This document shows positions 2,699 through 28,580 of a stretch of 57,314 nt of DNA, one piece after another. Source of the DNA: Cyanophora paradoxa CCMP329. Taxonomy: Eukaryota; Plantae; Glaucophyta. The stretch lies in NCBI GenBank assembly GCA_004431415.1, contig QPMI01000052.1, positions 1 to 57,314 of the forward strand. Reading direction: 5' to 3'. The position numbers and the translations under genes are program-made. The notes under the pieces are model-generated. The model was not told the DNA's origin, ran no database searches, and worked only from the letters and a program-made list of their open reading frames with translations. Position 1 is the first letter of the stretch. Each line of letters starts with the position of its first letter.

Positions 2699-2739
2699 TG
2701 TATCTTTATTAGAATGAGAGATAATTTTATAAACCGCGT

Positions 2740-5027: not shown

Positions 5028-5974
5028 TCATCTTATAGTATTCATAAACTGGGTCCCAGCTGGCTCATCACCATAGCGAATTTCAAAGGTAAGATGAACA
5101 GGTTGACCCTCGAAATCAATTGGTTCATTAACAGCATTCACAATATCAACCGAGAAAGTGGATAATCCAACCTTCTTATTATAGTATTTGTAAAGTGGAT
5201 GAGCCTCTGTCGAATTGTAAACTACATGCTCACCATAATCTTTGTCAGGGACCACTATTTTATGGAAGTAACCAGTCAGGAGACCATCCCACATTGCACC
5301 AGATCACCCAGCTCCTTTACTCTCACAACAAACACTGTCCTGTCATTTCAGGCTCAAATGAAGATATAATACCGTTTACTCGAGTTCCAGTAAAGATTCC
5401 ATCAGTGAGAGCATCATAGACTGTGATTTGATTGGGGAATTACCATATCTTCCAGGATCAAGACCAAAAGTCGAGCTGAGCTTAACAGCTTTTGGATTGT
5501 TTTCAGGTTTGGGTCTACAGCAAGTGAGAAAGCCAGGTAAAACTTTTTTCGGAATGGAATATAATTCGTTTCAGTGACTCATCCATTTGCAGCGAACAGA
5601 TGGTTTAGGATTTCTGTCATTAAACTTTTCATTTATAACATTCACCAGCTGTTGGTGGTTTTGAATGGGGTTTCGCGATTTACAATGAATTGTTTCCATT
5701 GTTCAAATCAGCAGCTGGGCGAGTTGTTGGAATTCCTGTAATTCCAGCTCCCGCAAGCTCTTCAGAATAATAAATACTAAAAGTGTTGTCAACTGTTATA
5801 TCTCCTGCTTTGGTTTCACCACTCACCATAGGGATGCTGTTATAAAATTCGGCTGAGACCAGTCTCACAGCCTCACATTCTCATAAGTACTGGGGAGTCT
5901 AGCCACAAAGCTTGATGTGGGACCATCACCAGAGATTGTATTAAATGAGCTAACTCGATGTAATCCACAGGCAT
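5028..5974 (-). CDS. Minor capsid (penton-like, single jelly-roll) protein 1 (frameshifted)
   Basis: N-terminal SSFVARLPSTYENV-AVRLVSAEFYNS and C-terminal FSVDIVNAVNEPIDFEGQPVHLTFEI match the terminal patterns of PLV/NCLDV pentons. Confidence 0.7.
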
Positions 5975-6003
5975 TCTTCTTTTATCTATATTTATATATT
6001 AAA

Positions 6004-6934
6004 ATGAACCGGCTCGTTAATATTGATAGCAGGGATAGAAGCCAAGGACAAAATGAAAACTCTTACAGGGTCACCCTCACAACTCCAGTAGAGAGACCAA
6101 GGGAATGCAGGGTTCTATATGCAGAGATTCCAAACAGCATCTATAACAGTGTGGGAACTGATCATCTAACAGTTCAGTTTAATTACCAAGATGGTTCATA
6201 TAACCAAGTGATCACACAACAAGTGTATCCCTTCCCAGTGGCTACATCAATCAGGGTCATTTTGGGGTAACACACCTTATAATTATGGGCTGAACTATTC
6301 AAGCTTCCAAACTATTGCAGGCAAAACAGTAGCTTTTGAGTTCAAGATATTCTACAACCCAACAACCTATAAAGTGGAGTTTTACAGTAACCATGAGTTT
6401 CGTTTTATTGCAAGCAACCAGAGAATAGGAAAGCTTTTGGGTGTAAGTTCTACTGAATACACCACTGGGTATTATAGCACTCCTCCTGTTGGTGGATCAC
6501 CCTATCGACCTGAGAACCTGTTAAAGTATGATGGCAAACCTATTACACCTGATCACCCAGCATGGGGAATCACCTTCTCAGGACCCAGACTCTCCTCTAA
6601 GCCCTTGCAATATTATTTTGACAGCAGGAAGATGTCTGATATGAATGCTGAGCAGTATCTGTACATGCATATTAAAGAGCTGTCCCCCTTTGCCAGCAGA
6701 CACAATATAATTCCAAAATCGCAACCACAAAATCAGGGAGCTATCCTTAGATTGCAATTGAGTAAAGATATAGGGGGCTATGTTTACCATAGTGGTGAAC
6801 ATGCAGAATTTATTCAAATCAATGACAGAAACCTGGTGATAAGGGAACTCACTGTGGAGTTTAAAGATTACTTTGGTGAACTGATTGATATGAATGGAAT
6901 CGATAATTCTTTTCAGTTGGAGTTTATCGAATAA
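6004..6934 (+). CDS. Minor capsid (penton-like) protein 2 (frameshifted near 6260)
   Basis: MNRLVNIDSRDR...YRVTL...VLYAEIPNSIYN at the N-terminus and LTVEFKDYFGELIDMNGIDNSFQLEF at the C-terminus are penton-type signatures. Confidence 0.75.
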
Positions 6935-8478
6935 AGGCACCTGTAAAGTCAACTCTCATTGTGGGAGCATTCACATACACAAGGGGATAAATGCGAATAT
7001 ACTTGATTCTCAGAGAATAACCTATGTAAAAAGCATCCTTGATGCTGAGAGGAAATCCACTCAATAGAGCCACATCACCTGAGTTGTGAGCATTGTTAAT
7101 GTTCTCACAGACATACATTTTGTTTTGCCCATCTGATCGAATAAAAGACCAGTTGATCCCATCAGTGGATGTTGCCACATTGAAAGTCTTAATAAAAGCA
7201 TTGGTGTCCCCTGAGCCATAGGCAATCACAGAGGAGAGTTCAAAAGTGTATGGGAAAGCAACTTGAAGGTATTCAGTGGGGGTTTCCCATATCTGCTCAG
7301 GAGCAAAGGCTCCAGCTTCCCAGCCAAATGCTGAAGGTCTTGCCATGAAAGGCTCTTTACCTGTCACAGAGGATGAGGCAGTAAAGGCATCATCTGCAAG
7401 CTGATACCAATTGGCATCCAAAGGAGGTGATGTAGTGAGAGTGGATGAAATGTAAGCCTTTGAAGGGTTCTTTAGTTCATAGTTTGCTACTAGAAGGCTG
7501 CAAAGCTTATTGATCATATCATTGTTTGCTGCAATGTATGTTTCAGTGAATGCAAGCATGTCTGGGATCTTAGATGTGTCATCCAGGGAGCTTACTATAT
7601 GATTTGGAAGAGGGACTGATAACCTATAGTATCTCCCATAATCCTGATCATAGTTGTAGGGTAACAACTCCTCCATCTTATCAAGGGCAGAAAGCTCACT
7701 TGCAGCCATGAGCATGTTAATCAATGGGCTTCCATCTGTTGAGGCAATCCATGAGAGAATGCCCCAGCTGTTTACAGTCTCATAAGCATAACCCACATAA
7801 TCAGACTCTAAATGTGGGTCTACCTCACCACAAGAGATGCTTATTACTATAATATCATCATCATCACTGTAAATCTTCTTTGCATGGCTGTAACCACACA
7901 CACTGGGATTATTGTTTCCCGAAATGGCACCATCAATGAGACAGACATATACTCCCCTATTGAAATCAACAATGCTTACAGGAGAGAAATATGTAGGAGC
8001 AGCAGAAGTAGCCCTAGCAGCAATCTTACAAGGCATAAAGTTGTAATTGTTGTCATTTGTGATAAATATTGGTTTCATATTCTGAGTATCAAAGGATGTG
8101 ATCACAATGTCCTTAAGGGAATCCTGTATTAGTGATTCACCAGTAACTGAATTGATTGCAGTCTCCAAGGGTCCCACATCATACTTTGTGTTAAATAGGG
8201 CATTTTCAATGATATTTCGAGGATTTGCGAAAATCAAGGGCAGTTGAGTTAGGTAAATATTGTGTAAATCGTTTGCTGTCAGTTTAGGTTCACCTGGTTT
8301 ATCAGGATGCCTGATGTTTAACCCAATAGCAATGATCCCACCAGTGGAAGTTCCACTCACAGATCCACAAGATCGATTATTCTCCTGCCAGTTCGATTTT
8401 CGATTTCTTTGAGCAGCCTGGTTATGATAATGCCCCTTGCACCTCCCCTGACAAACTGAGAACTACTTTGAGAGGCAT
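6924..8478 (-). CDS. Patatin-like phospholipase fused to a C-terminal discoidin (F5/8 type C) domain
   Basis: ATG at 8478 reads MPLKVVLSLS-GGARGII (glycine loop, one G missing from a G run), then GTSTG nucleophile elbow, ATSAAPTYF and DGA. The C-terminus EYLQV...STDGINW...KYIRIYP...MRVDF is discoidin-like. Confidence 0.9.
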
Positions 8479-8521: not shown

Positions 8522-11500
8522 ATGAGCTTCAATTACCCACCCAATCTAGAAACCATTCAAGATGATAATGCAAGCAGCACCAAGCATGTGAACTTTGATA
8601 ATATTAAAGTAAAGGGTTCAGTTTCAATTGACCACAGCTCTGATAATTCATCAAAGACTCAATCAAGGGAGCATGCTTTATCTGTGAATCAAACTGATCC
8701 AGATAAAGAGGATGTCAGTGTAGCTTTTAGTTTGGGTAATGTGAAAGCAAACCAAGTGGCAGAGATCAAAGCCACCAGAAGGAGACCTAGGAAACTCAAA
8801 ACCAGTGGCACTCATCCAGATATACCTTCCAGGTTCGATAGTGGTCGATTGATTTTCAATGTTCAAGATGAGCAGGGCAAACAGAACACAGCTTTACGAA
8901 TTTACAATGAGGGCAGCACTGCAAAAGCTGAGGTCCCCCAAGTATTGCAAGTGGGTCCCATTGCCAATACAAATCAGGTCTCCTACACAAATGATGTCTA
9001 CCCCAAGGATATTACATATGACTTTGCAAGAAATGAGCCTTTTGGGTTCTTTACTCCAAAAGATGTCCATCAAAAAAAGCCATCAATTACAATCAACAGT
9101 AGCCCCAGTCAACCAGTAGCAATCCATTTGCATCCTGATTTAGTCGAAATGGATAGGCACCTTTTGCCTTTGTATAGCAATGTGAAAGACCTTGGAATTC
9201 GAACCAGGCAATGGCGAAATATCCATGGCAGCAATGTGTATGCAAATGGAGAGAAGCTTGTTAGTGAGAAAACTCTAAGGGAAATCATTGAGCATTATGG
9301 TCCCAATGGACCTACTGTCCCATTCCCTATTCCATTTCCCAATGGACCACCCGATCTAACACCAAAGAAGCAGCCTGGAAGAGAATACACAGCAACTGAA
9401 GATGTAGCCTTTGGGCAGCATATTGTGAGTTGGGAGCAAGTTCGCAATAAACCTATAATTGAACCCAGAAAGCAAATAGATGAGCAGTATTTACCTCCTG
9501 AAATCGATATATTAGAGCTTGAAGAATATCAATTCGTTCCAGATGAGGAGGAGTATTTACCAGATGGTTTTGACCCACAAGAGTATGAGTATGATCAATT
9601 TGACCCCAATGAGGAGGAGATACTACCAGATGGCTTAGATCCTCAAGAGTTTGAGTATGAGCAGAACTATGAACCTGATGAGGAGTATTTGCCAGATGGG
9701 CATGATCCACCAGTTGTTGATTATGAGCAACCTTATGAACCCCATGAGGAATTATTACCAGATGGATTTCGACCTGAGATCTGGGAGTTCTTTCCTGATT
9801 ATGAACAAATTAATAATAAACCTGCAAAGTATCCCCCAGAGGATCACAATCATGATTGGGATGAGATCTTAGGCAAACCTCAAAAGTATCCACCAGAGGA
9901 TCACAGGCATGATTGGGGTGAAATTGATGGGATACCTACTGAGTTCCCACCAAGCAAACATGAACATACTTGGGATGAGATAAATGACCAACCAGAATTC
10001 GCAAAGGTGGAGCCTCTTGATAACTTGGGGGTTTCTCTTTACCAGACTTGCAATGTCCCTGAAAGGATTTTTTTGAATGAACACTATGTTCATGTGAATG
10101 GGACACTTGCAAATTCAGCTATGAGAGGACCACTTCATATTAGGACATTACCAGGCTCTTATGATCCACCACCTGAACCAGGAGCAACCATACCAAATAT
10201 CTTTGTGTCAAGCTACATGGAGGCTGACATTCCCACAGATACATTCAGAGTCCCAACAGACCCAGCAACCTACCAAAATTTCAACTCTGCTATACAGGTT
10301 CATGTAGCAGATGTAAGCAGTTTAGATGGATCAAGACCAATGATAGTATTCAGTCGAGATAAATATTCCTACATTCCCATAGTGGGAACTGCAAATGATA
10401 ACTATGGGAGGGCAGAGCTTGCATGGATTAAAACAGATTATGGTGGGGTTCTGGAAGCCAATCAGAGGATGGCTGCAAAAAACATACACAATGAGAACAT
10501 TTCGAGAGTGGTCACAGAGGATTATTTAGAAGAGCAAGGATATATTGATGAAGGTGAATTAACAAACATTCTTTCTCTTTTTGTGATCAAAAATGACACA
10601 AACCTTACAGTCACAAGTAACATTTTCACCAGTAACCTTTATACAAGTAACATATGGGCAAGTAACATATGGGCAAGTAACATATGGGCAAGTAACCTAT
10701 GGGCAGATGATATTTACACAAGTAATCTTACAGTGTATCGAAATATAACAATTGGAACACAAAATACTATACAAATACTTTATAGACCTTACTATGCTGT
10801 TACTACTGTCATTGATCCAGCCCCAATTATTCCAAATTGTATATTTGCATGGAAAGCATCAGGTCAACATGGTGAGTTGATATATTTCGAAGGTCAGTTA
10901 TATAACAGAGTTACTACACAGATACCATACATTACAAATAATTCGAAGTGGGAAAGTGTTTATTATTATTTGAATGCAACCCTGAACAATCAAATTTCGA
11001 TTGGGAAAGAATTAAACTTGGCTTATAGGAGTAGTGTTTCAATAGATTGGTCATCAGGTCTTACATTATTCTTTATAGGTAGGATCAATACAACAAATCC
11101 TTCTTATATGTTGAATATAAGGGATAGTTCTTATCAAAATTGGATTGGATATGGTTGTAAAAATCAAAAGTTTGGGGTTTCACTTCAAATTCAAAACGAT
11201 GTAGAAAATGCAACTCCTCCATTATTCGATGCATCATATATATATAATTCGTGGAATTATTGGGATTTCACTGTTTCCTCAGAGAAAATTGTTGTAGGAA
11301 TGGGTGGTGTAGATATCGGAACTTCATCAGGTTATTTTCTTCCACCTTCTAATTTTGCATCATTTGGTTCTTCTGTTGCTAATGGAGATCTTGCCGAAAT
11401 TATCGTTTTCAATCGTGCGTTATCTATTGAAGAAAAGAACGCGGTTAGATATTATATACAATTATTGTATGGATTTCCAAATACGCAGCCCATATTGAAT

Positions 11501-14500
11501 AATGAAGATCTTAAAATTAATTCGAGCAATATATTTATTGAAAATCTCACAGTTACCAAAAATGCAACTCTACCACATCATCCAACATCGAATGTTGTTT
11601 TAGATTGGTTAGCAAAACAAAAACACACAAAAGCAGATATTACGGATTTCGCCCATACTCACACAAAAGATCAAATCACAGATTTCGCCCATACACACAC
11701 CAAAGATCAAATAACAGATTTTGCCCATACTCACACCAAAGATCAGATCACAGATTTCGCCCATACACATTTATGGGAGCATATCACAAATCCTCCATTA
11801 ACCTTCCCACCTGATTCACATACTCATGATTACTCAACAATAACCAATAGCAACCACAGACACCCTTGGAATCAAATAGATGAACAACCTACTTTTGCAT
11901 CATCAGGCAATATTTTGACAGACTTTACAAATGGTGTGAGTCTCTACCAGAGTAATACCATACCTGAAAGGCTACAACTAAATGATTATTATGTCAATCG
12001 AAAAGGCATTGATGCAGGGACCACAATGGAAGGTGAATTATACATCAAACAACCAACAAGAATCCAAATGATTTCAGCAGGTGGTGTTGGGGTGATTGAT
12101 ACCAAACCAGGCATCTTCTTAACAAGTTATTATAATGAGGACATCCCATTGACATCAGGATTACCACCTCTCCCATCTGATCCAGCAGCATATGATGATA
12201 AGGATGCCATTATGCAAGTAAATGTAACAGATGTCAGTGCAACTGATGGCTCCAGACCTAAAATAATATTCAGTCGATCCAAATTCAATTATGTCCCACT
12301 TGTGGGACAACCATCAGATAACTATGGGAAATGCGAAATGTCCTGGATTAAAACATTAGCAGGAGGAGCCTTAGAAGTCAATCAGAGGATGGCAGCAAAA
12401 AACTTACACAATGAGACCCTCTCTGGTGTTGTTACAGATGATTATTTAGAAAACAAAGATTATGTAACAAATACAGAATTACAATTAGCTCTTACAGATG
12501 TTGTAACAGATACCGAATTAACAGCAGCTCTTGGGAATTATTTACCTCTAACAGGTGGGACTGTCAATGGAACTGTGAATGCTACCACTCTACAAATTGG
12601 TGGAACCACAATACCAAAAGGTTATGATTTCGACCAATTAGATGTTATTTCGACAGACAGATCTCCAAATAACTGGACTGTTACTTGGGCATCAAGAACA
12701 GGGCAAAATGGATGTCATACCACACCACAAAATGATGAAGATTGCAGTGGTTGTTGGATGAGATGGCTCATTCCCACAGGTATGAAATCATTTTATATCC
12801 AGCACATGCCTTGGTATAATTGTAGATATTTTGATATCTATGGGCAAACAGTCAATGGATATCAACATTTCTTAAAACGAGTAAATGCCTATCAGGGAAT
12901 TCAACAGGTGAATCAGGATGGAACACATAATACAATCTTGTTTGTCTCTATCAATTGCGAGTTTTACAAATATATTTATGTTCAAGGTCGAAAAGGTCGC
13001 ATTCATCTCACAGGTGTTTTTGGGTGGAGCAGACAGAGAGCAACAGATAATGAATTGGGCATGATCTCTTGGGATAATGTATTTAGTAAACCTGATTTTG
13101 CAGGCACTTATGCAACAAAGGCAGAAGTCCCTAACGTTTTAGGTGATCTATTGACAGTGAACTCTGTGGACTGGCACAAATCAACAGATAATATTCCAAG
13201 GTTTTGGTTTGGTAGTGGTAATACAACATATATTCGAGGGTATGGGAATGGTGAAGGTGTCTCTATCGAATTTAGAAATTCAGGAGATACAGCCATTTTG
13301 AAGTCTTATGACAATGGTAACCTTTGGGTAAATAATACCATTACAGCAACCACTATAAATGCTACTACAAATCTCCAAATAAATGGTAATGCTGTTCCAA
13401 AGTTTCACACAGGAGATGCCTCAGTTGCAGGTAGTTCTCCATATAATTATTCTTCTGGTTGGAATTTCGGGTATGGATCATCATGGGATCCATATTATAA
13501 TTATGGTGGGTATGCATTTAATAATGAAGTTGATGACCAAACTTCTTCCGCTTGGATAGAATACAATATACCCGATGGTTTACACACAGGAACAGCATAT
13601 TTAACATATTTACCTTGGGGAAACTGTCGATTGTTTGAGATTTGGGGAATTAATCGACAAGGAAATGGTATTTATATTACAACTGTCAACAGTTACAACC
13701 CATATAGCACCTCAGCAGATGGTAACCATAGTGGTGTAAATAATGTTCAAATCCATCTTGGAAATCGTTTTATTCGCATTCGGATTTATGCAAAAGTTGG
13801 AAGGGTTCACATTATGGGTATTAGTTTTATGAAAGTATGGAATGGATCCAGTTATGGTGGTCACACAGGTTTTATCCACTGGGATAATGTTTATAGTAAA
13901 CCTTCTATGCTTACATTAACAAATGTGACTAATTCGATAGGAAACATTACAGGTTTTGATACTTGGAGTGGAACAGGTTCTTACAGCTTATCATTTAGTG
14001 GATCTTGGACAACAGGTTGGACACCAACCTACACAAATCCAGTCGATGGATTTTATAGTAACATTTCAGGCGATGAAACAGATGGTGGTTGGGCGCAAAT
14101 TGAAGTCCCAGCCAATATGAAAACATGTCATGTTCAGTATATGTGTTGGACAAATTGCAGATATTTCGATATTGGAGGCTATCGAAATGGGAGGTGGCAT
14201 CACATTATGAGGGTGAATTGCTACCAAGCCGTTTCAAATAATTACGATTCAGATTGGCATGATGGCTTAACATGGACTTCTTTCCATTGTGATACATTCT
14301 CTCATGTAAGATTTGTTGCAAGGAAAGGGAGATGTCACATTGGAATGATTGGATGGACAAAAGAAAAAGGAAGAACAGCCCCAGCAAATGGTTTTATAAG
14401 TTGGGATAATGTATATAGTAAAGATGCTCGCACAACTTGGGCAACCGGAACTTGGATTACTTCAAGTGAAGGTTATTCAAGAATATATTTCGGTTCAGCA

Positions 14501-14947
14501 TCAACTACATATATTAGAGGACATGCAACAACAGTAGTAGAATTTAGAAATACGTGGGATACACATGTAGCATTTATAAATGATGATGGATACATGTGGG
14601 TTAGAAACTATCTCGGACAAGGTAGCGATAGAAGATACAAAACCGATATTAAAAAGATAACTGGCGCTCTTTCAGCAATAGAGAAATTAGAAGGAGTGAG
14701 TTTTAAACGAATCGGAAGTGAAAAAGATGGAACAAGATTAGGTTTAATTGCGCAAGATGTGCAACAGGTAATACCAGAAGTTGTGAGAGCAAAACAAGAC
14801 GATGGCTACTTAGCTCTCGAATACACAGGTTTAATTCCAGTTCTCATAGAAGCCGTTAAAGAATTATCCCAGAAATGCAAAGATTTAACACAAACATGTC
14901 AGAATCTCCAAAGTCAAATAGATCAAATTAAAAATATCTCAGTATAA
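8522..14947 (+). CDS. 2141-aa modular fibre/adhesin with C-terminal peptidase S74 intramolecular chaperone
   Basis: Intact ORF with acidic EEYLPDG repeats, PP-H-H-W and HTHTKDQITDFA phage-tail repeats, a LamG-like GDLAEIIVFNRALS segment, YLPLTGGT, three copies of a ~110-aa domain, and SDRRYK...GLIAQDVQQVIPEVV...LIEAVKEL from 14624. Confidence 0.9.
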   Translation: MSFNYPPNLETIQDDNASSTKHVNFDNIKVKGSVSIDHSSDNSSKTQSREHALSVNQTDPDKEDVSVAFSLGNVKANQVAEIKATRRRPRKLKTSGTHPDIPSRFDSGRLIFNVQDEQGKQNTALRIYNEGSTAKAEVPQVLQVGPIANTNQVSYTNDVYPKDITYDFARNEPFGFFTPKDVHQKKPSITINSSPSQPVAIHLHPDLVEMDRHLLPLYSNVKDLGIRTRQWRNIHGSNVYANGEKLVSEKTLREIIEHYGPNGPTVPFPIPFPNGPPDLTPKKQPGREYTATEDVAFGQHIVSWEQVRNKPIIEPRKQIDEQYLPPEIDILELEEYQFVPDEEEYLPDGFDPQEYEYDQFDPNEEEILPDGLDPQEFEYEQNYEPDEEYLPDGHDPPVVDYEQPYEPHEELLPDGFRPEIWEFFPDYEQINNKPAKYPPEDHNHDWDEILGKPQKYPPEDHRHDWGEIDGIPTEFPPSKHEHTWDEINDQPEFAKVEPLDNLGVSLYQTCNVPERIFLNEHYVHVNGTLANSAMRGPLHIRTLPGSYDPPPEPGATIPNIFVSSYMEADIPTDTFRVPTDPATYQNFNSAIQVHVADVSSLDGSRPMIVFSRDKYSYIPIVGTANDNYGRAELAWIKTDYGGVLEANQRMAAKNIHNENISRVVTEDYLEEQGYIDEGELTNILSLFVIKNDTNLTVTSNIFTSNLYTSNIWASNIWASNIWASNLWADDIYTSNLTVYRNITIGTQNTIQILYRPYYAVTTVIDPAPIIPNCIFAWKASGQHGELIYFEGQLYNRVTTQIPYITNNSKWESVYYYLNATLNNQISIGKELNLAYRSSVSIDWSSGLTLFFIGRINTTNPSYMLNIRDSSYQNWIGYGCKNQKFGVSLQIQNDVENATPPLFDASYIYNSWNYWDFTVSSEKIVVGMGGVDIGTSSGYFLPPSNFASFGSSVANGDLAEIIVFNRALSIEEKNAVRYYIQLLYGFPNTQPILNNEDLKINSSNIFIENLTVTKNATLPHHPTSNVVLDWLAKQKHTKADITDFAHTHTKDQITDFAHTHTKDQITDFAHTHTKDQITDFAHTHLWEHITNPPLTFPPDSHTHDYSTITNSNHRHPWNQIDEQPTFASSGNILTDFTNGVSLYQSNTIPERLQLNDYYVNRKGIDAGTTMEGELYIKQPTRIQMISAGGVGVIDTKPGIFLTSYYNEDIPLTSGLPPLPSDPAAYDDKDAIMQVNVTDVSATDGSRPKIIFSRSKFNYVPLVGQPSDNYGKCEMSWIKTLAGGALEVNQRMAAKNLHNETLSGVVTDDYLENKDYVTNTELQLALTDVVTDTELTAALGNYLPLTGGTVNGTVNATTLQIGGTTIPKGYDFDQLDVISTDRSPNNWTVTWASRTGQNGCHTTPQNDEDCSGCWMRWLIPTGMKSFYIQHMPWYNCRYFDIYGQTVNGYQHFLKRVNAYQGIQQVNQDGTHNTILFVSINCEFYKYIYVQGRKGRIHLTGVFGWSRQRATDNELGMISWDNVFSKPDFAGTYATKAEVPNVLGDLLTVNSVDWHKSTDNIPRFWFGSGNTTYIRGYGNGEGVSIEFRNSGDTAILKSYDNGNLWVNNTITATTINATTNLQINGNAVPKFHTGDASVAGSSPYNYSSGWNFGYGSSWDPYYNYGGYAFNNEVDDQTSSAWIEYNIPDGLHTGTAYLTYLPWGNCRLFEIWGINRQGNGIYITTVNSYNPYSTSADGNHSGVNNVQIHLGNRFIRIRIYAKVGRVHIMGISFMKVWNGSSYGGHTGFIHWDNVYSKPSMLTLTNVTNSIGNITGFDTWSGTGSYSLSFSGSWTTGWTPTYTNPVDGFYSNISGDETDGGWAQIEVPANMKTCHVQYMCWTNCRYFDIGGYRNGRWHHIMRVNCYQAVSNNYDSDWHDGLTWTSFHCDTFSHVRFVARKGRCHIGMIGWTKEKGRTAPANGFISWDNVYSKDARTTWATGTWITSSEGYSRIYFGSASTTYIRGHATTVVEFRNTWDTHVAFINDDGYMWVRNYLGQGSDRRYKTDIKKITGALSAIEKLEGVSFKRIGSEKDGTRLGLIAQDVQQVIPEVVRAKQDDGYLALEYTGLIPVLIEAVKELSQKCKDLTQTCQNLQSQIDQIKNISV
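9480..9990 (+). repeat. Coding repeats: acidic (E)EYLPDG-DP units followed by His-x-His-x-Trp units
   Basis: About 5-6 degenerate EE(Y/I/L)LPDG units, then three K(Y/F)PP-xH-H-W units. Confidence 0.85.
10644..10703 (+). repeat. 15-bp tandem repeat encoding SNIWA
   Basis: caagtaacatatggg occurs three times exactly, plus one copy with a single mismatch. Confidence 0.95.
11621..11770 (+). repeat. 36-bp tandem repeat encoding HTHTKDQITDFA
   Basis: Four units with synonymous differences. Confidence 0.95.
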
Positions 14948-17325: not shown

Positions 17326-17724
17326 ATGGAGACTCAATACAGAGGCTTTCATGTTATGCTTGATTACAAGGCTAAATCAGCTATTGCAACAGGACATGAG
17401 CATGTTAGCTTCCTAGGTAATTGGATTATGGGAACCCTTGAACAAGCTATATTAAGACAAGGCATAAGAATTGTTCATAAACACTGTGAGATATTTGATG
17501 GGAAACTATCACCTCCTGGTTTTGCATTGGTTCTGCTATTAGATGAAAGCCATTGCACAGCTCATTGTTATTCCAATGAAGGCATGTTAGCAATTGATAT
17601 ATTCAGTTGTGGTAAAGAAGCTCAGCATAAAACACAAGCAGTAGCAGATGAGATCGATAAAACAATGAATTTCTTAACATTTGAGAAGACTGAGAGACAT
17701 AAACATGATAGATTCCCGTTTTAA
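17326..17724 (+). CDS. speD: Pyruvoyl-dependent S-adenosylmethionine decarboxylase proenzyme family (short prokaryotic type)
   Basis: G-HVMLD, F---PPGFALVLLLDESHCTAH-Y--EG-LAIDIFSCG: intact E-S-H autocleavage site and the conserved DxFxCG. Confidence 0.9.
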   Translation: METQYRGFHVMLDYKAKSAIATGHEHVSFLGNWIMGTLEQAILRQGIRIVHKHCEIFDGKLSPPGFALVLLLDESHCTAHCYSNEGMLAIDIFSCGKEAQHKTQAVADEIDKTMNFLTFEKTERHKHDRFPF

Positions 17725-17939: not shown

Positions 17940-18660
17940 TTATATTAAAGTGGACTCAAGGTTGACTCATATTAATCGTAAAAGTAGTAATAGTATATGG
18001 ATTTTGTTACGAATTCAATGCAAGGGTTGACTAAGTGGGTTGAGTTGACTCAAATTTCACAGGAAATATTTGGGACCTAAAGTTTTCTAAAAAGGATTTG
18101 AAAAAATGTGTCAACTCCCCCCACTTAGTCAACCCTGACCATAAACAGTAAGGATTTGAGCTAACATGTATCACAAAGTGAACATTTTGAGTCCACTTAG
18201 AAGATCCACTTTTGAAATCAAAGTTGATTTTGCTTGAAATTTCAAAGTTGATCTAAAAGTGAGTCCACCCTGATTGATTATGGTAACAAAGTTGACTAAG
18301 TTGACTAAGTTGAGTCATCTTAAGAAATTCAAGGAGACTAAGAGTTCAAAATGTTTATGAAAAGTGAGTCAACTTAGACCACTTATGGTAACAAACTTAA
18401 ATATTTAATTGATTTAATCGGAAAAGAACATGATTTAATCGAATTTATTGATATAATTCCGATTAGATTCATTTAGGATTCAATTAAGATCAATCGAAGT
18501 TATAGATATAATTCCGATTAACTACAATTAAGATACAATATCGATTAATCGAGTTTATCGATATAAAATCGATTAAATTAATTGAAAATGCATTTAAAAA
18601 TATGAAAATTCATGTGAAAATTCAAATAAATTAATCGATTTTATTGATATAACATCGAAT
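17940..18660. repeat. Non-coding subterminal arm with direct and inverted short repeats (candidate origin/TIR)
   Basis: 30-bp imperfect inverted repeat at 18023-18052 / 18107-18136, many GTTGACT/AGTCAAC units, ttatggtaacaaa twice, and AATCGA/TCGATT-rich repeats at 18400-18660. Confidence 0.75.
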
Positions 18661-18661
18661 C

Positions 18662-18740
18662 ACACATATGAATATTCATATTTTAATCCTGAGGCGGAAC
18701 GGTTCCGCCTCAGGATTAAAATATGAATATTCATATGTGT
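18662..18740. repeat. Perfect 79-bp terminal palindrome (39-bp arms, 1-nt centre)
   Basis: acacatatgaatattcatattttaatcctgaggcggaac-G-gttccgcctcaggattaaaatatgaatattcatatgtgt; ends exactly at the AT-to-GC switch. Confidence 0.98.
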
Positions 18741-21700
18741 AAGGCTGTCGACGCCATGTTCGCGGAACGGTTGGCGTACTTCTGGGACGTGCAGGACGAC
18801 GAGATCGAGGACGGACACGGCGAGAACGACCTCGCACGAGCACTTCGACGACGCCTCACGGCTATTTGGCCGGACACTCTCGGGCTCACCACGACACCGT
18901 TATCTCGTCCCGACCCTGAATTCTACCCGAATCCCGTAGCAGACGGATACTACGAGATCGCGGGAAGGGGGGGCAAGCGCTTCCGCGATCACGCCCTTGT
19001 CCCCAAGGAACGCGATTTTCTCCCGGATTACGGGTCTCTCGAACCCCCACTTCCCCCTGAGCTTTACGGTACGGAGGCGGGCGACGCGATCCTGGAAGAC
19101 ACGACACGCGACGACCTTGTCTCGTACTCCCAGCCACCGATGCCGTTCCTTCAGCAGCGACGGATGCTGGCCAGCTTATACTCGCTTTCCGAGGAGTATC
19201 AGCTTCGGGGGCCGTGGTTGACGGGAGCTATCTCGGAAATCTTCACGCGTCCTGAGCGCCCCGTGGAGAGGACCAACAACCCAGATCCACAGGAGGGCGA
19301 CCTTCCCCTGGATCGCACTCAGGGCGGTCTCCATGCGATTCGACTCATGCATGGTGACGCCGACATCGACAACTTCTTCCGCAAGTTTTATCCGCTGCGA
19401 CCTCTTTACGGTCTCTTCTACGCGGGAACGAAGAATCTCATTCGGGCGTGCGATCGGGCCATCCGCTTCCGTAGCGATCCGGAACTCAACGCGTACGGCG
19501 CGGGCCTTCGTACAGACGGACCCCGCCTACGCAACCGTGGAACGACATGGTTCAAGCAGTTTTCCATTACGACCTCCAACGAGGCCTCTCCGTCCAACCC
19601 CTACAGGTCGTATCTCACGGCTGCAACGAACCCGACCTTGCAGCCTAGCTTTGTTCCGGAGCTGCGTCTCTCGGAAGAGGCGGGTGACCCGACCACTCCG
19701 CTCTTCCCCGACCCCGTCAACACTCCGACTCAGACCCCTCCATTCCGCACCTTCTTTCACGTACCTGCGGACTTCAGCGGCAACGCCAACGGGCCTCTTC
19801 TTGCAGCCCTCGACCCCACGCCGAACCGAGGGGTGCGCAAGCTCACCATGTACGATCCAAACCACACGGACACGTGGACACTACTCACGAATGGCATTCG
19901 CCCGTCTCGCGAAGACGCGCGGACCATCGATTACGTACGGCTGGGGATCAGTGCAAGCAACATGCTTCTTCCGGGCGGCATCATTCACGAGACTCACGAA
20001 CGCCTCGCGGGTACGGATTGGCAACACGTCGTCATTGCCTTCCCGCTCGACGTCCACCTCTACATCGCGGGCATTGCCTTTTTCGTCGCACAGTGGGGAA
20101 TTCTTTCCAGCTCCTTCCCCACGCACGTCGTCGATCTCCACCCGGCGTTGCACCGCATGCTGTCAGATTACGTGCACCGGATGCGGGAAACATTGGGTTT
20201 TACTGTCAATGAAACCGGCATCGCCAGCTTGACAGATTACTGGACGAGCGAGTCCAGCACGTGGTCGCCGGCATACCGTATTCCGGCGGGCTCTCTACAA
20301 TCGGCGTTGTCGGCACTTCTCCTCAAGTACATCATCGCTCACAACGCGCGCCTCGTAGTCCCTCGTGACGTGCATCGGAGGGTGAACCGCAACGGCCCCA
20401 ACTACAACACCCTGCGGCAGCAGCTGAACGAGTTCAAATCGGCACGCCTGCAGCGCTGGTGGCCGAACGCGTTCACTCTCACGGACGAGCTGCGGGAGCT
20501 ATTCAAATCCGAGACGGTCACTGCGGAGCAGGCTGAGAACCTCACGCCAACAGCAGGCTTCGTTGAAGTGGACCGCAACATTATCACGGCCCAAATCCGC
20601 GACTTCATCGACGTGATGCGCCCTCATGTCGAGAACGCCATGGCGGACGAACTTGACCCGGACACGGACGCCTGGGATCCATTCCTCATTCGCCTCGGCG
20701 CAGTCCTCTACGAGCCGGACCTGCGACTGGAGCTGTCGAACTGGATCACACGGGTCTTTAATTGGCCGAGCTCTCCCTCGACGGAGAACTACGACTACAG
20801 CAACTCGCTGTACTACACTTACGAGGCGATTCCCCCGCTCCGCTACTCAGACTCCCGACCCGATGATGAGGACTATCGGCGACACTTCCCGCACGTGTAC
20901 TACGAGTGCTCGCCCGGTCCTGGTCGCTGGACTTCTCCATTCGATGGTCTAGCCGACGACCACAAGGTCTTCAATCCGCTCAAGTTCGCCCTCCGCCACA
21001 ACCCCGCTACTCCTCGAGTGTATGCCATCTACGAGGCGCCGTACGCGGACCGGCTCCCATCCGAGCAGCGGACGGCCGATCTCCCGGCGACGCCGACGCG
21101 GTGGTCCATGTCCCCGAGCCTCGGGCCCGCGGACGTTGACGGCGCCCCTGCTTCGCCGCCTCTTCATCCGCGTGGCTATCGCATCCTGCGAACCCGTCGC
21201 CGCACTCTGAAGCCTGTGCGCTCGCGGGTGGAAGGCTGGAACGCTACGCGGCGCCTCTACTACGCCCACTCGATCGCCGACGCTCTGCGACAGCACACGA
21301 GCTCCACGCCCCCGGACTCGACTTCGGCGGGGTTGACGGCGACGGGTGCGGCAGCGGTCCCCACTGCAACGGTGACGGTCAAGATGGCAACCGTGACGGC
21401 AGCCGTCGCGCCTGACGACGAGATGTCCAACGCCGACGCAATCTGGGGTTCGGATGACGAGATGCCGACGGCGCCCACGTCTGCGGCAGAGGACCCGCCT
21501 CCGCCTGACGACACTGGCGTGCCTTCCGACCGCCCCACCTCGCCTTTCCCGTGGTACTGCGGTCCTCTCCCGATCCCGCGCAACGGACTTCTCTTCGTGG
21601 AGACCGCCGACTTCGCGTACTCTCCCTACTCGGCCCAGGGCACGCCGTACTGCTGGATCGAGTTCGCCCTGACGTCACCGGCTCACCAGACGATCATCGT

Positions 21701-22195
21701 GCCACGAGCGTCGCTGTTTGACGACGTGTCCTTCGCTCAGTCCTTCCACATGTACGACTGGAGCCGCCTTTCGCCCTCGCACTGCGTCAACGCTCAGTAC
21801 CTGGCCCGTCTCGCTGACGAACTACGCGACACTCCGGTCGTTCTCAACACCAGCGCGGGCTTGGCTTTGGAGCTGGCACGCTCGCAAGTCATCCTCACAC
21901 GCCTGGCGTTTGTCATGAACACGCTCGGTCGCCCGGCGTACGACGCGCTCCTGTACTCGTCGCTCGACTGTGTTCACGCTCAGCGTTCGCGTTACTACGT
22001 CGACATCATCCTACGCGGCGACCGTGGGCTGACCCAGGCCTGGCCGATCCTCATTCAGTACCTGCGGAAAACGGCCCCGTTCTTCCGTTCGAGCCTGGCG
22101 TACGAGACTCTGGGACCGTACATGGACCCTCGAGAGATCACGGTGGCCCAGCTGACGTTGGACCCTGGACTCGAGACGGACGAGGGTGCGGGTGG
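18741..22195 (+). CDS. Large retrotransposon ORF1 region (gag position; no recognisable motif), 5'-truncated
   Basis: More than 1100 open codons directly upstream of the protease; the frame is already open at the junction. Confidence 0.6.
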
Positions 22196-23202
22196 TGTCA
22201 CTTTTGGGACCTTCACGACGGCGCACATCACCTCCTGCAGCAAGCGGAATGGTGCGAGGGTATTCGCGGCGATCTCTACACCCAGGGCCTGGGCTACACG
22301 GACACCGGCACCGACTCTGCACGCCCGTCGCCCGCGACAAGCCCGTTCTTCTGGGTGGCGGCTGGACGCCTCCCGCGGACGCACCCACCGAGGCTTGCCC
22401 TCGCTGGCGCGCGCGTCAAGCGTCCCTTCACGCCGGAGTGGCTCCTCAAGCCCGCTCCCTCTTTGGTGAAGGCGATGTGCCGCAAGAAGGTGAACACGGC
22501 GAATCTCCAAGCTCCTGACTTACACCCGATGGCAACAGTCTTCAAGGCCACGTCCACGGTCGATCCCCCTCACTTCGCTGCCCTGCAACTCGCGACGCAC
22601 TCTCTCCTGGCGCGACCAGGCGAGCAGTTCGACCCGCACGAGGCGGACTTGTTTCCTTCTTCACCCTCTGGCCTTGCGGTCCGACTGGTCGATCCGAAGA
22701 AGGCTCTTGACAAGCGCCTCGCCGACGCAAGAATCTGCGTTCGTCTTCAAGTTGGCGCGCTCATTCCCGGCCAACGCGTGAAGACGATGCGTACGGTTCT
22801 CGCACTGGTCGATACGGGTGCGGCAGCGGACGTCATGGACGGCAGCATCGCGGACACGATTGAGGGGCTCCAGTACTCGAATCAGGCTCCAGTACTTCTG
22901 ACGGGCTTCGGCGACAACATGAACGCGTACGCACGCGTCGCCTTCGTCACGTTCAAGATCGGCAACGTCTACATAGCCCGCAAGATCCTTGTAGTCGCCA
23001 AGGGCCTCATGGGCGACACGCCGATGCTTCTCGGTCTCTCAACGCTGACGGCTCTTCGGGCGAGCATCAGTCTGGACACGGCCAACTCGGGCATGACGAT
23101 TCTGCCGCCAGGCGATCACACTGCGACGCCGTACTTCGTTCCTTTTACGCAACGGGCCAGCCCGACGGGGGCACGCTGGTCCGTCTTGCGCAAACGGTTA
23201 CG
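22196..23202 (+). CDS. Retropepsin-type aspartic protease segment
   Basis: ALVDTGA at ~22802-22822 and MLLGL downstream. Confidence 0.85.
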
Positions 23203-26126
23203 TTGCCCCCTGGCGAGGCCCTGGTACGATGCCACGTCCCCACGTATGATAAGACGGCGAGTGCGCACGCGCCTCACATGGAGGTCTCACCGCCGCCGGT
23301 CTTCATCTCGGAAACCGGAGATGATAACACTGACGAAGTCGACTTTCTTACACCTTATCAACTCCATCTCAACCCTCACCGACGAACTTGCCTCGTGGCG
23401 GTCCGGAACCCTCACCGCACAGACGTCCGCTTGAAAGCGGGCACCATTGTCGGCGAGGCGGCGTACGGTGACTGGCCGGAGAGCGAGTACGACCCGCATC
23501 CCGACGTCTCGCAGTACCCGCAGGGACGGTACAAGAACTGGAGTCTGGAAGCCCAGCAGACGTTTCCCATCAGGCGTGTCGTCCAGCAGATCTTCGAGAC
23601 GGCTCGCCCCGTCACCTTGCTGCGAAGCTGCCAGCCGCGGCGGTTCGCCTCCGTGGCACGCGCCACGTACCCGGAAGCCTTCAGCCATGGCGACAACCCT
23701 CAGCCCCAACCACATCTCGATCACTCACGCCCCGCCACCGAACGGGATCGGGAAGACGCAGCGTCGTTCGTCGAGTCGCTTCTCGCCTATGACGCGTTCA
23801 TACGCGACCGCAACTTCATGACCGACGACTACACAGACGAGGAGGTCGAAAGACTGATCGATTTCTTCCTCCCGTACTTCACCGACCCCCAACGGTTCCG
23901 TGGGAGCTTCCGTGAGACTCTCCTACGAATCCGCATCGGACAAGCGTCGATGGCCGATGCAAACGCCATGGATCCCCCCTCCACGTTGATGGCGGGTCCT
24001 GCGGCAATGACAGAAGCCGAAATCGACGCTATGGTCGACGGGTTCTGCAAACCCTCTGAGGCTGACCCCGACATTACATCGGACCAACGCTTGACGTTCC
24101 GGAACCTTGTGCGCGAACAAGCCCGATGCTTCGCAAAAGTCCTTGATCCTCGTGACCTCCTCAAGTACACGAACTCGATTCGTCTACTGCCAGGTGTCAA
24201 CCCCAAGCGGCTGCCCCTCTACACAGTCCCTCGGCGGCTCTCTCCCCCGGCGGAGAAGGCGGCCAAGGCGACTATCGAACAGCTGCTCAAGGACGGCCTC
24301 ATCGAGCCCTCACAGGCTGGATATGGCAGTCCCGTGGTGCTGGCGCCCAAGAAGGACGGCACGATGCGCTTCTGTGTCGACTACCGACGGCTCAACAACT
24401 TGATCGAAGGCGACGTCTTCCCTCTTCCCCGCATTGATGATCAACTTGAACGTTTGCAAGGCTCCTCCATCTTCAGCGTTGGCGACTGCCTGAGCGGATT
24501 CTGGCAACTCGGCCTCGAAGAAGCCTCTCGGGACTACACCACCTTTCTCCTGCCATGGGGAGCCTGGAAATGGGTGTGCACCCCCTTCGGTCTCAAGTCT
24601 GCTCCGTCAGCATTCTGCCGGGCGGTCAGTTCAGTGCTCGGGGACCTTCTCTCCACGTGTGTTGTGGCCTACGTCGACGACTTGACTCTGCATTCGCCGA
24701 CCGTGGCTCAGCACCTCATCGATCTCGAGGCCTTCTTCGCGGCGCTCGCTCGGGGCAACCTCAAATTGAAACCGAGCAAGTGTCACTTCATGGTCCGCGA
24801 GATCGACCTTCTCGGTCACCGTGTCAGCGCTCAAGGCGTCCGCATGGACACGAAGAAGGTGGAGGTGATCTCCAAGATTACTGAACGAGAACTGCAGACC
24901 GTCGAGCACATGCGCAGCTTCCTCGGCATGACGGGCTTCTACAGGCGCTTCATCCGCAACTACACGCGACGCGAGCTTCCGCTCCGTGACCTGATTCACG
25001 CAGCGAAGCTAGCGGACACGACGCAGCTTCAGTGGACGCCAGAAGCCAGCGAAGCACTCGCAGACCTCAAAAAGGTCATGTGCGACGACATCGTGCTCAT
25101 GCTCCCCGACTTTTCCAAGCCGTTTATCATCTACACGGATTGGAGCTTGCGAGCAATGGGCGCGGCGCTCATGCAGACCGACTCTGACGGTCGAGAACGA
25201 CCAATCGCCTTCATCAGCCGAACCCTGACGGCCACGGAGGCGAGGTACAGCTCCCCGACGGAAGGCGAATGCATCGCGGTCATGTGGGCCGTCAAGACGT
25301 GGCGACACTACTTCGACTGCGGGCACCCGTTTACCATCCGCACGGACCACTCGCCTCTGCAGTGGTTGAAGTCGCAGGAACTCCTGGCGAACAAGGCGCT
25401 TTCACGCGCGGCACTCGTCATGCAAGGCTTCAACTACACGATCGAGTACAGGCCGGGCTCGACCAACGTTGTCGCCGACTTCGAGTCGCGCATGGCTCGT
25501 ACGCATCCGATCTACGAGCCTGGAGCGGCGGACGGATCGGACCTCACTACCGACCTGCCCAACGGGGCTCACGGACACTCGGTACCCCGCAGCGGCGATC
25601 CCGACGACCCGACGGAGATCTACGGCACGCTCGTCCCCGTGACGACCGAGCCTACGACATCTATCGCGGCCGCTGGCCTCGACGGACGTGCATGGGCACC
25701 ACCAGCACCTGGAACAAAGCGACGCCGACCAGTGACATTGGCCGAGCCTCGTAGCTCGCCCAACTCGCCACCACAGCGCGCCCGCCACGATCCAGAGGAG
25801 CAGGTGACAGAAGACGCCGAGGACGTGACTTCGGAAGTGGATCCCGCAGAGTACTCCGACGCTGACGACGACGAACTCTCGTCTGAGGAACAGCGGAGCT
25901 CGCCCTCGCGCGCCGAGGCCGATCTCCTTGGACGGACGGGACCTCACTCTGAGGAACAGCGGAGCTCGCCCGCGCACGGCAACACCACGCGCGACGGGAC
26001 TCGCGACTCAGGAGATCGAGGGAGGGGAGGGGTACACTGCGCGGGCGACCTCGTGGACGACCGCGTGGACGACCTCGCCTGCACCACCCCAGAAACCGCC
26101 CTTCAGCAACCGAGCCTCGCAAGCCG
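23203..26126 (+). CDS. Reverse transcriptase and RNase H segment
   Basis: SPVVLAPKKDGTMRFCVDYRRLN, PLPRID, PFGL, YVDD (24670), SFLG-GFYRRFI, YTDWS, TDHSPL, VVAD. Confidence 0.97.
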
Positions 26127-28580
26127 GTGCTGCCTGACGCGGATCCGATCGGGAACCTTCTCCCACCTCCCCAACTCCCCGGCGGCATTCAGCATGAGAT
26201 CGAGAACTACTGGCGGCAGGAGGCACAACGCCATCTTGACGGACGCCAACACGAACTCGCCTTGCCGGAGCCCGACGGCGAGGCTGACCCGCAGCTCTCG
26301 CCGAACAGCTCGGTTGGGGAACCGATGGACGTGACGGATGGAGAACCTGCTCAGGCGACCCCTCCCACGCCCTCAGCAACACCTGCCTATGCGGGGCAGC
26401 AGGGCAACAAGCAGCCTCGACGCAGGGCGGAAGATCGCCATCGAGCCTCGAAGCAGGCCCAACACCGTTTGCTCAAGCAACAAGCGCAACAACGACACGA
26501 GGAGAATGTGCGCAACAACGCAGATCCTGACGGAGCCGAGGCGCGTCCTCGCCTCTCGAAGGAACAGCGTAAGCAGCGCCGTGACACTCGTCGTCAAGAA
26601 CTCGAGGCACAAGCACCACGCCCCCCGAACCTTATCCTCACGCGAGGTGCAGGGTCTCGCAAGGGTCGGTACGCCATCGCGCCTCCCAACGTGATGGACG
26701 TACTCGACGAAGTTCTCCTCCCGATACCGACTCCACCCGAGACGTTGGGCAACGAACGCGAACTTCCACCTGCGGAGCCGCTTACGACAGACGGCGTCGC
26801 TCCGTTGGATGACCGTACCGGCGGGCGCAACGCTCCGAAGCCGGTCTACTTACCGCCAGAGACCACTGTTGCCGACTGCTGGATGCAGGGGCCTCAGCCG
26901 CTGGTTGAAGTCCCTGTACCACCTGCTCTCCAGCCTCTGACGGTCGACGGAGCCTCTATGGTGGAAGATCAGAAGACAGATCCACTCTGTCAGATGATCA
27001 TCGCGTTCAAGCTGCGGAAGGAGAACCTTGCTCGTTGCTACGGCCACACTCACGGCGCTGACGCCCTGAGCCGTGATCCCGACGTCTACAAGACCTGCTT
27101 CGGCTGCGGGCAGGCGCGGGAACGCTTTGCGAAGGAGGCGGGACGCTACTGTCTCTCTCGCTCCGGTGTGGTCCTCCGCGCGCCCCTCTTCCCAACGATG
27201 GGCTCGCCGGTGGTAGTGCCCCAACGCTGGAGAGCTGCGGTGATGGAAGCGTATCACGATGACTGGGCCCACCGAGGCGCGTCCATCGTCGCCCGGCGCA
27301 TCGCGACTCGCTTCTGGTGGCCTGGCATGACGAACATGGTGCACCGCTACGTTCGCACCTGCCATCACTGCCAGTTGGCGAAGGCCAAACACCGGCCTCG
27401 AGTGCAGCACATGATCATCGAATCGCGGCACCCTGGCGACCTGCGCCAAGCTGATCTCTGTCCGATGCCTCACGCCAAAGATGCCCCTCACCGCTTCACG
27501 CAAGTGCTGATTGACATCGACGCGTACACCAAGTATCCGGAGATCATCATGCTCACGGAAGCTGACGGCACGGCCATGGAGTGGGCTGCGCAGAGCATTC
27601 AGTCCTCAAACGGCACGCCCAAACGTTACCTCACTGACAACGGCACGGTGTTCAAGCCGAACACGCCCTGGGGCAAGTTCTGGACCAAGCAGGGCGTGCG
27701 GCTCATCTACACTGGTGTCTCTCACCAGTCGACCAACGGCGGTGCCGAACGACTTGTCGGGGTGTACAAGCGGCTTATCTTCGCGCTCTGTGCCGAAGAC
27801 AAGCGTGACAACGTCTACTGGCCTTACTACCACTACCGTGTGCTCTTCGCGCTGCGCACTACGATCCACGCGGCAACCGGCTTCTCCCCGGCTACGCTTC
27901 ACCATGGACGCGAGCTGGTGCTGCCCGGGGACCTCCGTTTGGATCTTGTTCAGCGTGAACCCTTCGGCGAGCCTTACACGTATGCGGAGTATGCGCTGGC
28001 TGTCGCGCGGGCGGCTTCAAGTGTCGCTGAGGCGGTCAAGGCTCATCGGAAGATGTACAATCACAAGCTCCTTCGCTACGGCACCGGCAACGAACCTCGT
28101 CAGATTTTCGTGCCGGGTGACAAGGTACTCTGCTGGAGCGAGAGCGCGAAGGCGACCAACGTCATGAAGCACGGTACACGTAACGGCTGGACCGGCCCGT
28201 ACGTGGTCGTGGAGGTCTTCTCTCGCGGCTACCTCTACACCGTACGCGGCGACCCGTCGTCTCGAATGCATCGTTCGACGGACGTTGTGGTGCACGTCGA
28301 CAACATCATTCCGTACTATGACCGCCCCGATAACTTTGCCGAGGATCCGAAGCCTGGCCGGCCCCAACGGCGCGCCCCTGAACCTGTTCCCCCGCCTCCG
28401 GTGCATCTGGACGCGGATGGTGATCAGCCAATGGAGGATCCGCCGATCCTGCACGACGACGAGCCTCACTCGGAGGGCCGCTTGGCCGAGGAGGGCAGTG
28501 ACGACGACTCCGTGGAGTCCGAGCAGGAAGAGAGTGTGCAGCTCCATGTTGTGGGCTGGCCGAAGCACGACTTCGCCTAG
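26127..28580 (+). CDS. Retroviral-type integrase segment
   Basis: HHCC finger (YHDDWAH...CHHC), D-D-E (ADL, TDNG, GAER) and GPY/F motif WTGPY; stop at 28580. Confidence 0.95.
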   Translation: MLPDADPIGNLLPPPQLPGGIQHEIENYWRQEAQRHLDGRQHELALPEPDGEADPQLSPNSSVGEPMDVTDGEPAQATPPTPSATPAYAGQQGNKQPRRRAEDRHRASKQAQHRLLKQQAQQRHEENVRNNADPDGAEARPRLSKEQRKQRRDTRRQELEAQAPRPPNLILTRGAGSRKGRYAIAPPNVMDVLDEVLLPIPTPPETLGNERELPPAEPLTTDGVAPLDDRTGGRNAPKPVYLPPETTVADCWMQGPQPLVEVPVPPALQPLTVDGASMVEDQKTDPLCQMIIAFKLRKENLARCYGHTHGADALSRDPDVYKTCFGCGQARERFAKEAGRYCLSRSGVVLRAPLFPTMGSPVVVPQRWRAAVMEAYHDDWAHRGASIVARRIATRFWWPGMTNMVHRYVRTCHHCQLAKAKHRPRVQHMIIESRHPGDLRQADLCPMPHAKDAPHRFTQVLIDIDAYTKYPEIIMLTEADGTAMEWAAQSIQSSNGTPKRYLTDNGTVFKPNTPWGKFWTKQGVRLIYTGVSHQSTNGGAERLVGVYKRLIFALCAEDKRDNVYWPYYHYRVLFALRTTIHAATGFSPATLHHGRELVLPGDLRLDLVQREPFGEPYTYAEYALAVARAASSVAEAVKAHRKMYNHKLLRYGTGNEPRQIFVPGDKVLCWSESAKATNVMKHGTRNGWTGPYVVVEVFSRGYLYTVRGDPSSRMHRSTDVVVHVDNIIPYYDRPDNFAEDPKPGRPQRRAPEPVPPPPVHLDADGDQPMEDPPILHDDEPHSEGRLAEEGSDDDSVESEQEESVQLHVVGWPKHDFA

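Follow-up and report, generated by a model that had tools for sequence, protein, structure and literature searches.

How are the ends of a linear Polinton-like virus (PLV) or virophage genome copied without a protein-primed polymerase? This is an open question, and the locus described here bears on it. The window, that is, the whole stretch of 57,314 nt of Cyanophora paradoxa CCMP329 DNA that was analyzed (contig QPMI01000052.1), carries at its left an element that we regard as a Polinton-like virus in the broad sense, multicopy and integrated, and the right end of this element is a long palindrome. A first-pass annotation had seen in it a perfect 79-bp hairpin end and, from this, a hairpin-based mode of replication and integration. 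Is the palindrome the true tip of the element, is the perfect hairpin the form carried by the other copies, and could such an end prime its own copying?

We found that the sequence from 18662 to 18740 equals its own reverse complement save for the central G at 18701 (39 + 1 + 39, 79 bp). This comparison confirmed the annotated 39-bp arms around a single G, as well as the nested 16-bp palindromes, of which one lies in the inner arm (18666–18681) and its mirror copy in the outer arm (18721–18736). When all 57 kb were compared, the runner-up perfect inverted repeats had arms of 12 bp and lay within a GCC repeat. Furthermore, the longest chance arm in 200 Markov shuffles of 17700–18900 was 11 bp compared with the 39 bp observed, and the predicted fold of the palindrome region had a z of −14.3. 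The 79-bp palindrome is not a product of chance. Its edge also coincides, as had been annotated, with a change in composition: the GC fraction shifts from 0.386 (1–18740) to 0.623 (18741–29500), and retrotransposon contigs diverge exactly upstream of 18741. The ~900 bp upstream of the palindrome hold no long ORF; the direct repeats found there (Table 1) resemble iterons and may be origin-like, and the nested 16-bp palindrome is a possible site for a dimeric protein.

The right flank is a retrotransposon rather than ordinary host DNA, a point missing from the first-pass annotation. A profile search identified protease, RT, RNase H and integrase zinc finger domains downstream. The protease, the RT-RNase H and the integrase are encoded in three frames of the pol region (22355–28580) that overlap one another, the integrase being preceded by a long acidic linker; the 5′ LTR lies outside this copy. 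The outer arm of the palindrome supplies in-frame ATGs (18723 and 18735) to the interrupted retrotransposon ORF, and the resulting open frame of 1248 aa (18723–22469) had no Pfam or PHROGs match. The remaining host DNA in the window has a GC content of 73–80%. A second low-GC island (36900–41000, GC 0.39–0.71) with short perfect inverted repeats at 40061–40080, 40420–40451 and 40622–40643 is possibly another mobile element.

Is 18740 the end of the element elsewhere as well? At least 20 sequencing runs of one organism contain all or part of the stretch, 14 of them with half its words or more. Five of 24 runs (X1, X2, X3, X5 and X8) were compared as contigs built from short reads, not as reads; such contigs lose rare variants and joins, and all of the contig results below hold among the matches listed. 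In all four of X1, X3, X5 and X8, retrotransposon contigs carry an identical, unrelated stretch of 30 letters upstream of 18741, which represents the empty site. These letters are open in the retrotransposon reading frame, indicating that the virus inserted into the first ORF at a codon boundary. Three further GC-rich flanks join the palindrome end, one in X1 and two common to X5 and X8, with no obvious common target motif among the joined flanks; in X1, a 4506-nt contig (record 3) has 4432 unrelated letters joined exactly at 18662. Because these three other flanks meet the same end, the element is multicopy and has the palindrome as its true tip; it ends at 18740 and is adjoined there by at least four different flanks. 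The expectation that the palindrome would be present in other copies was thus borne out.

Several other readings of the boundary were set aside. Flanks joining at 18659 and 18660 were not taken as variable opening sites; the 2–3 letters that match in addition probably reflect ascertainment, as the contigs with junctions on the other arm match only 28 letters and seem to be unaligned. A protelomerase-type cut at the axis was rejected, as the host junction lies at the outer edge of the palindrome, 35–39 nt past the axis. Nor was the loose end at 18686 in X5, which resembles an adapter, taken as a genome end. The ratios of interior to retrotransposon depth (9, 18, 32 and 18 in X1, X3, X5 and X8) were not read as copy numbers, being subject to GC bias and summed contigs.

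The contigs also bear on the other end of the element. Subterminal contigs are no deeper than those of the S-adenosylmethionine decarboxylase (AdoMetDC) gene (167 vs. 162–254 in X1; 1950 vs. 1845 in X5), so the other end has either a shared repeat of more than 1.4 kb or a different tip. Sister copies diverge at 17000, 17216–17232, 17833–17884 and 18099–18134, with loose ends and a 50-nt replacement, which points to subfamilies that differ in their subterminal regions. In the AdoMetDC gene, the sequence of the window departs from that of the run contigs at many sites. A break at 18666, where the nested 16-bp palindrome begins, is common to contigs of X3, X5 and X8; it suggests a recurrent alternative join or fold-back.

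The apex of the palindrome turned out to be different in the other copies. All nine listed contigs aligned across 18702 lack 6 bases (one, four, two and two in X1, X3, X5 and X8), and in each of these four runs the gap-bearing depth at 18702 equals the total depth. The main apex contigs (X1 record 3, X5 record 19 and X8 record 27) have their six gaps in two blocks, together with two other letters. A plain 6-nt deletion would give one gap and no mismatch; therefore, the second arm differs. In X3, the deep contig stops at 18701 and the apex is crossed by low-depth variants only. One and the same core lies a single substitution away from record 8 and from record 9 of this run, and it also yields the two mismatches of the main apex contigs. 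From these gap and mismatch patterns, we reconstructed the family core by hand. The family end would be 73 nt long, with a 28-bp stem, a 3 × 3 bubble (TGA opposite GAG), a 4-bp stem (GGCG/CGCC) and a GAA loop. The depth of the arms agrees independently with this imperfect form: three arm contigs had 0.96–1.10 times the interior depth, where 1.67–2.0 times would be expected for perfect arms.

The T·G pair, tandem G·A/A·G pairs and GNA-type loops are stable DNA motifs. Our literature search found no relevant paper on the stability of tandem G·A pairs. The bubble would form a T·G pair followed by tandem G·A/A·G pairs, and on the opposite strand the mismatches would be C/T-rich and the loop TTC. 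The 79-bp perfect form may belong to this one locus and not to the family. The perfect hairpin end of the first-pass annotation stands for the sequence of the window but not for the form of the element, as all nine listed apex contigs are 6 bases shorter. The same holds for the G/C flip-flop at the central base that had been proposed as a sign of hairpin replication: the family has no such centre, and the marker of orientation would be the inversion of a core of ~17 nt (the bubble and the GAA/TTC loop). The central base was also unsuitable as an orientation marker because contigs of 31-mers cannot orient it.

Could the whole palindrome be an assembly fold-back at a repeat boundary, the danger that had been raised for it? 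The left 6.3 kb are heavily frameshifted, and the exact apex of the window and its own virus–retrotransposon junction are bridged by none of the contigs listed, both of which favor this explanation. On the other hand, short-read contigs cross the apex with at least 29 letters of the second arm in four of four runs, with nearly the full depth in both X5 and X8, and X1 record 3 spans a different host flank and both arms. We consider a fold-back origin of the whole palindrome to be extremely improbable; that an artefact is confined to its perfect centre has about even odds.

The imperfect core makes the orientation of the hairpin visible, and the palindrome likely occurs in two mirror-image orientations, which are unequal. 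Orientation A (interior, TGA arm, GAA) is carried in X8 by record 23 at a depth of 4617, compared with 4316–4500 for the interior, and in X5 by records 15–16, with 2250 for record 15 compared with 2300. A 50:50 mix would predict a ratio of ~0.83 in X8 by hand calculation, and orientation A is near 100% in both runs. These results exclude an equal mix and give no support to symmetric hairpin transfer of the AAV type in every round. Signs of orientation B come from one run (X1), from graph-simplified contigs and partly from one terminal letter: a 668-nt interior contig (record 1) departs with its last letter at 18690, the first base of the bubble, and record 3 runs from the host into the TGA arm, GAA and the other arm. 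The outer half of the window palindrome also places the TGA arm outermost. X1 also has a variant at 18588 that is rare in X2, a run of the same sample, and missing from X3 and X5, so orientation B may belong to a single haplotype.

How, then, did the window come to have a perfect palindrome? Its copy reads as orientation A up to 18701 and would be orientation B outward from there. A switch at the shared CG would yield 78 nt; the window has one extra G. The perfect 79-mer is likely secondary, either an atypical copy that arose here through template switching or an assembly or consensus error, the two being about equally likely. The run contigs show only one minor indel in 16500–21000, which was set against consensus error. 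Quasi-palindrome correction, in which template switching makes imperfect inverted repeats perfect, is described in the accessible text of PMC3820800. An 11-mer across the apex of the window recurs 21 bp inside the retrotransposon (18762–18772), a match that none of 97 control stretches reached (maximum 10), and it is possible that this 11-mer templated the perfect centre by local repair.

What kind of virus carries this end? The features are collected in Table 1. The packaging ATPase matched PF04665 with E = 3e-5 for the piece in the window and 3e-11 for its relative P0001, which is 87% identical over the aligned part and against which the window copy shifts frame about seven times. Three close relatives, all Logan proteins, are 39–49% identical and the next ten are at 33% or less; the ATPase belongs to a small clade, and these relatives assign it to no particular PLV group. 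The N-terminal piece of the major capsid protein scored 0.97 to Capsid_N clusters (207 of 256 features, with all 10 best named matches in agreement), its recognition value being below the threshold, and the capsid resembles a double jelly roll of the NCLDV type. For this piece, there was no Pfam match, the PDB sequence search was blank and none of 128 homologue candidates was confirmed. We take the product of 5887–6934 to be a probable minor capsid protein from its N-terminal motif; profile and homologue searches gave no family match. The first-pass annotation had also labelled an AEP primase. We read AEP-like motifs by eye at 86–840, yet searches of Pfam, NCBIfam, homologues (60 candidates) and the PDB and fold attempts lent the label no support, with an AlphaFold pLDDT of 42.5 and Atlas matches of at most 0.84.

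Table 1. Features of the viral element, its terminal palindrome and the flanking retrotransposon, with positions in the window.
Feature	Position	Strand	Remarks
AEP-primase-like gene, in pieces	86..840	−	AEP-like motifs in three frames, by eye; probably truncated at the window start
A32-like packaging ATPase	2733..3499	−	PF04665; several frameshifts
Major capsid protein	3640..4876	−	Several frames; N-terminal piece similar to Capsid_N, other pieces by position
Probable minor capsid protein	5887..6934	+	Two frames; label from an N-terminal motif
Patatin-like phospholipase with F5/8 domain	6924..8360	−	Profile match
Fibre-like protein, 2141 aa, with C-terminal S74 chaperone domain	8522..14947	+	PF13884, E = 2.9e-16
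S-adenosylmethionine decarboxylase	17326..17724	+	PF02675, E = 3.8e-11; last gene before the non-coding end
Subterminal imperfect inverted repeat	18023..18136		35-nt arms, 86%
AT-rich subterminal direct repeats	18434..18679		5 × 50 nt; spacing 55, 55, 20 and 66
Terminal palindrome	18662..18740		Perfect in the window; family form probably a 73-nt imperfect hairpin
Nested 16-bp palindrome, inner arm	18666..18681		Degenerate copy at 18597–18616
Core differing from the family	18690..18712		Run contigs 6 nt shorter, with another triplet opposite 18690–18692
Ty3/Gypsy-type retrotransposon	18741..28580	+	First ORF interrupted at 18740/18741; 3′ end probably at ~29.5 kb

The first 6.3 kb of the element are frameshifted, the longest stop-free frame being 139 aa compared with 2147 aa to the right, where the genes are intact. 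The genes for the capsid protein, the ATPase and the primase-like protein, all in 1–6300, may have decayed or may suffer from a poor consensus near the contig end. Two adjoining proteins of 294 and 278 aa (15257–17001) have a block of motifs in common as judged by eye; they look like paralogues and had no family match. Among the 21 viral ORFs and pieces of the element, which is cut by the window start, there was no polymerase (including pPolB), integrase, HUH protein, nickase, resolvase or protelomerase, and the 18.7 kb of the element within the window held no Mriya48, VLTF2/3 or RuvC-like gene. DNA pattern scans gave no match in viral contigs or metagenome contigs, and scans for related loci confirmed none of 5, 77, 602 and 595 pattern matches.

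Could the palindrome serve as a primer for copying the genome? We see an even chance that it acts as a 3′ self-priming hairpin, resolved with a bias, which copies the genome after excision. A nick at the junction would free an outward-pointing 3′ end, which would fold back into the hairpin and prime inward synthesis. The closed end would then be reopened and filled to an extended duplex, and this duplex would be the form that integrates, with a retroviral-type integrase as the probable enzyme. Reopening would be biased by the bubble, leaving one orientation dominant and the inverted one rare, a pattern described for autonomous parvoviruses at their left end; in the dominant orientation, the more stable GAA face would lie on the strand with the outward 3′ end. 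The exact end, the multiple sites and the unequal arms on which this reading builds were observed, and the core letters, the second orientation and all of the enzymatic steps are deduced. In its favor, we counted the absence of pPolB from the 18.7 kb within the window; against it, we counted the absence of a nickase, HUH protein, resolvase, polymerase or integrase from the same part and of any free genome from the data, as well as rare accidental inversion between the 28-bp arms, which explains the same orientation data. True rolling-hairpin replication, in which the bubble-bearing, GAA-capped hairpin would prime, asymmetric resolution would give mostly flip and some flop, and the extended duplex would be the substrate of the integrase, is a possible but doubtful reading for a small jelly-roll dsDNA clade. 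The hairpin-based mode of the first-pass annotation is the best reading here too, and there are signs of two orientations, but the family end on which it would operate is imperfect and 6 nt shorter than the one annotated.

Alternatively, the palindrome might be a protein-binding site in duplex or cruciform form, such as an integrase attachment site or an origin, with the orientations arising from rare inherited inversions and the perfect form from quasi-palindrome correction. The strong bias toward a single orientation in X5 and X8 would fit this explanation, the nested 16-bp palindrome and the iteron-like repeats resemble protein sites, and imperfect inverted repeats are known to be made perfect by template switching (PMC3820800, accessible text). 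The accessible text of a preprint on Halocafeteria (10.64898/2026.07.28.741278) also offers accidental annealing as an explanation. However, the hairpin ends exactly at the junction, both in the window and in X1 record 3, and the face that would be the more stable lies on the 3′-terminal strand in the dominant orientation. Palindromic ends also recur in several non-pPolB subtypes of another protist, according to the same preprint text. Taken together, we regard a mere binding site as unlikely, though it deserves to be taken seriously.

Another alternative is that the free form of the virus is linear duplex DNA whose ends are covalently closed as mismatched flip/flop hairpin telomeres, as in poxviruses, asfarviruses or chloroviruses. 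Such telomeres would arise by resolution of concatemers and would be opened, at a fixed site, only when the virus integrates. The N-terminal capsid piece is similar to the NCLDV Capsid_N and the ATPase is A32-like, as this would suggest. A mismatched hairpin in two inverted forms is also the poxvirus pattern (PMC8956199, accessible text). The depths of the arm, loop and interior are similar, with no sign of the long mirror-image dimers, and no resolvase or protelomerase is present in the part of the element within the window, all of which speaks against closed telomeres. Concatemer resolution should yield both telomere forms about equally, whereas X5 and X8 show one form. We therefore consider this alternative to be quite improbable.

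Why does an imperfect hairpin matter? The Halocafeteria preprint (10.64898/2026.07.28.741278), in its accessible text, proposed hairpin priming from palindromes alone and called for tests. An imperfect hairpin supplies a marker of orientation, which a perfect hairpin cannot. Given the bubble and the second orientation, hairpin priming becomes a proposal that can be tested by counting. Cyanophora paradoxa is a cultured organism with many copies of the element and many public runs, and counts of flip and flop ends can tell accidental inversion from asymmetric resolution and from hairpin transfer. If rolling-hairpin replication were true, flip and flop in integrated copies would be the first sequence evidence of hairpin transfer in a Polinton-like virus, and would mean that parvovirus-like end replication is coupled to integration in Bamfordvirae. 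There is also a warning in these results: the "perfect" terminal palindromes of long-read assemblies may be hybrids of two orientations.

The closest known systems are the elements of Halocafeteria seosinensis, whose virophage subtypes 1, 2, 5 and 6 and PLV subtype 4 have palindromes at their tips, beside TSDs and tied to non-pPolB genes, with hairpin priming proposed (bioRxiv 10.64898/2026.07.28.741278, accessible text). The novelty that the first-pass annotation saw in hairpin ends was therefore overstated. In those elements as in ours, the tip of a small integrated jelly-roll virus consists of a short palindrome, and no pPolB was seen; the palindrome of subtype 5 has 52 nt, whereas that of our family would have 73 nt, and a TIR, TSD and RVE integrase were shown there, whereas one end lies in our window. 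The palindrome screen in the preprint permitted 4 mismatches and a 10-nt gap; its main text, as far as accessible, does not use "flip", "imperfect", "mismatch" or "rolling", and its figures and supplements may show imperfect palindromes.

Parvoviruses have ~5-kb ssDNA genomes, an HUH nickase-helicase and Y- or T-shaped ends. Like their termini (the MVM/LuIII left end and the AAV ITR), the end described here would be an imperfect terminal hairpin with a small bubble, with an extended duplex that contains the whole palindrome and with the flip form alone or both flip and flop; unlike parvoviruses, the element is at least 18.7 kb long, has an A32 ATPase and a simple stem, and carries no HUH gene within the window. 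For a parvovirus, flip only is reported at the left end and both flip and flop at the right (PMC1185569, accessible text). With the telomeres of poxviruses, asfarviruses and phycodnaviruses, our element would share a mismatched hairpin in two inverted complementary forms, as described for large viruses in the accessible text of PMC8956199 and PMC11788076; in poxviruses, the mismatches matter for packaging (PMC8956199, likewise). Those telomeres are covalently closed and belong to large, non-integrating genomes, whereas our palindrome sits unclosed within duplex host DNA, with an apex rich in GC and one form dominant.

Like Polintons/Mavericks, the element is integrated and multicopy, has a capsid protein and a packaging ATPase, and is AT-rich against its host. 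Polintons have pPolB, an RVE integrase and TIRs, and their ends are of the AG...CT type; unlike them, our element has no pPolB in the part within the window, and its end, ...TGTGT-3′, is a fold-back palindrome. An NCLDV-type capsid and an A32 ATPase are shared with the NCLDV-like PLV groups (Zora VC102, VC134, VC218 and Zephyr) and with Mriyaviricetes. The latter have HUH, VLTF2/3 and RuvC-like genes and no integration genes, whereas our element is integrated and has no such genes within the window. Primase-helicase or HUH replication modules and lipase ORFs are described for these groups in the accessible text of 10.64898/2026.06.19.733378 and PMC11253617. The strings "palindrom" and "hairpin" are absent from the accessible text of these two sources and of PMC12220804, PMC10945749 and 10.1101/2025.04.19.649669, and that of PMC11296320 and PMC11788076 mentions hairpins for large viruses only. 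In the literature searched, which covered few subscription papers, we found among the papers listed no report of flip/flop ends in a PLV or virophage. The type of end is already published; the new part is the bubble and the two orientations.
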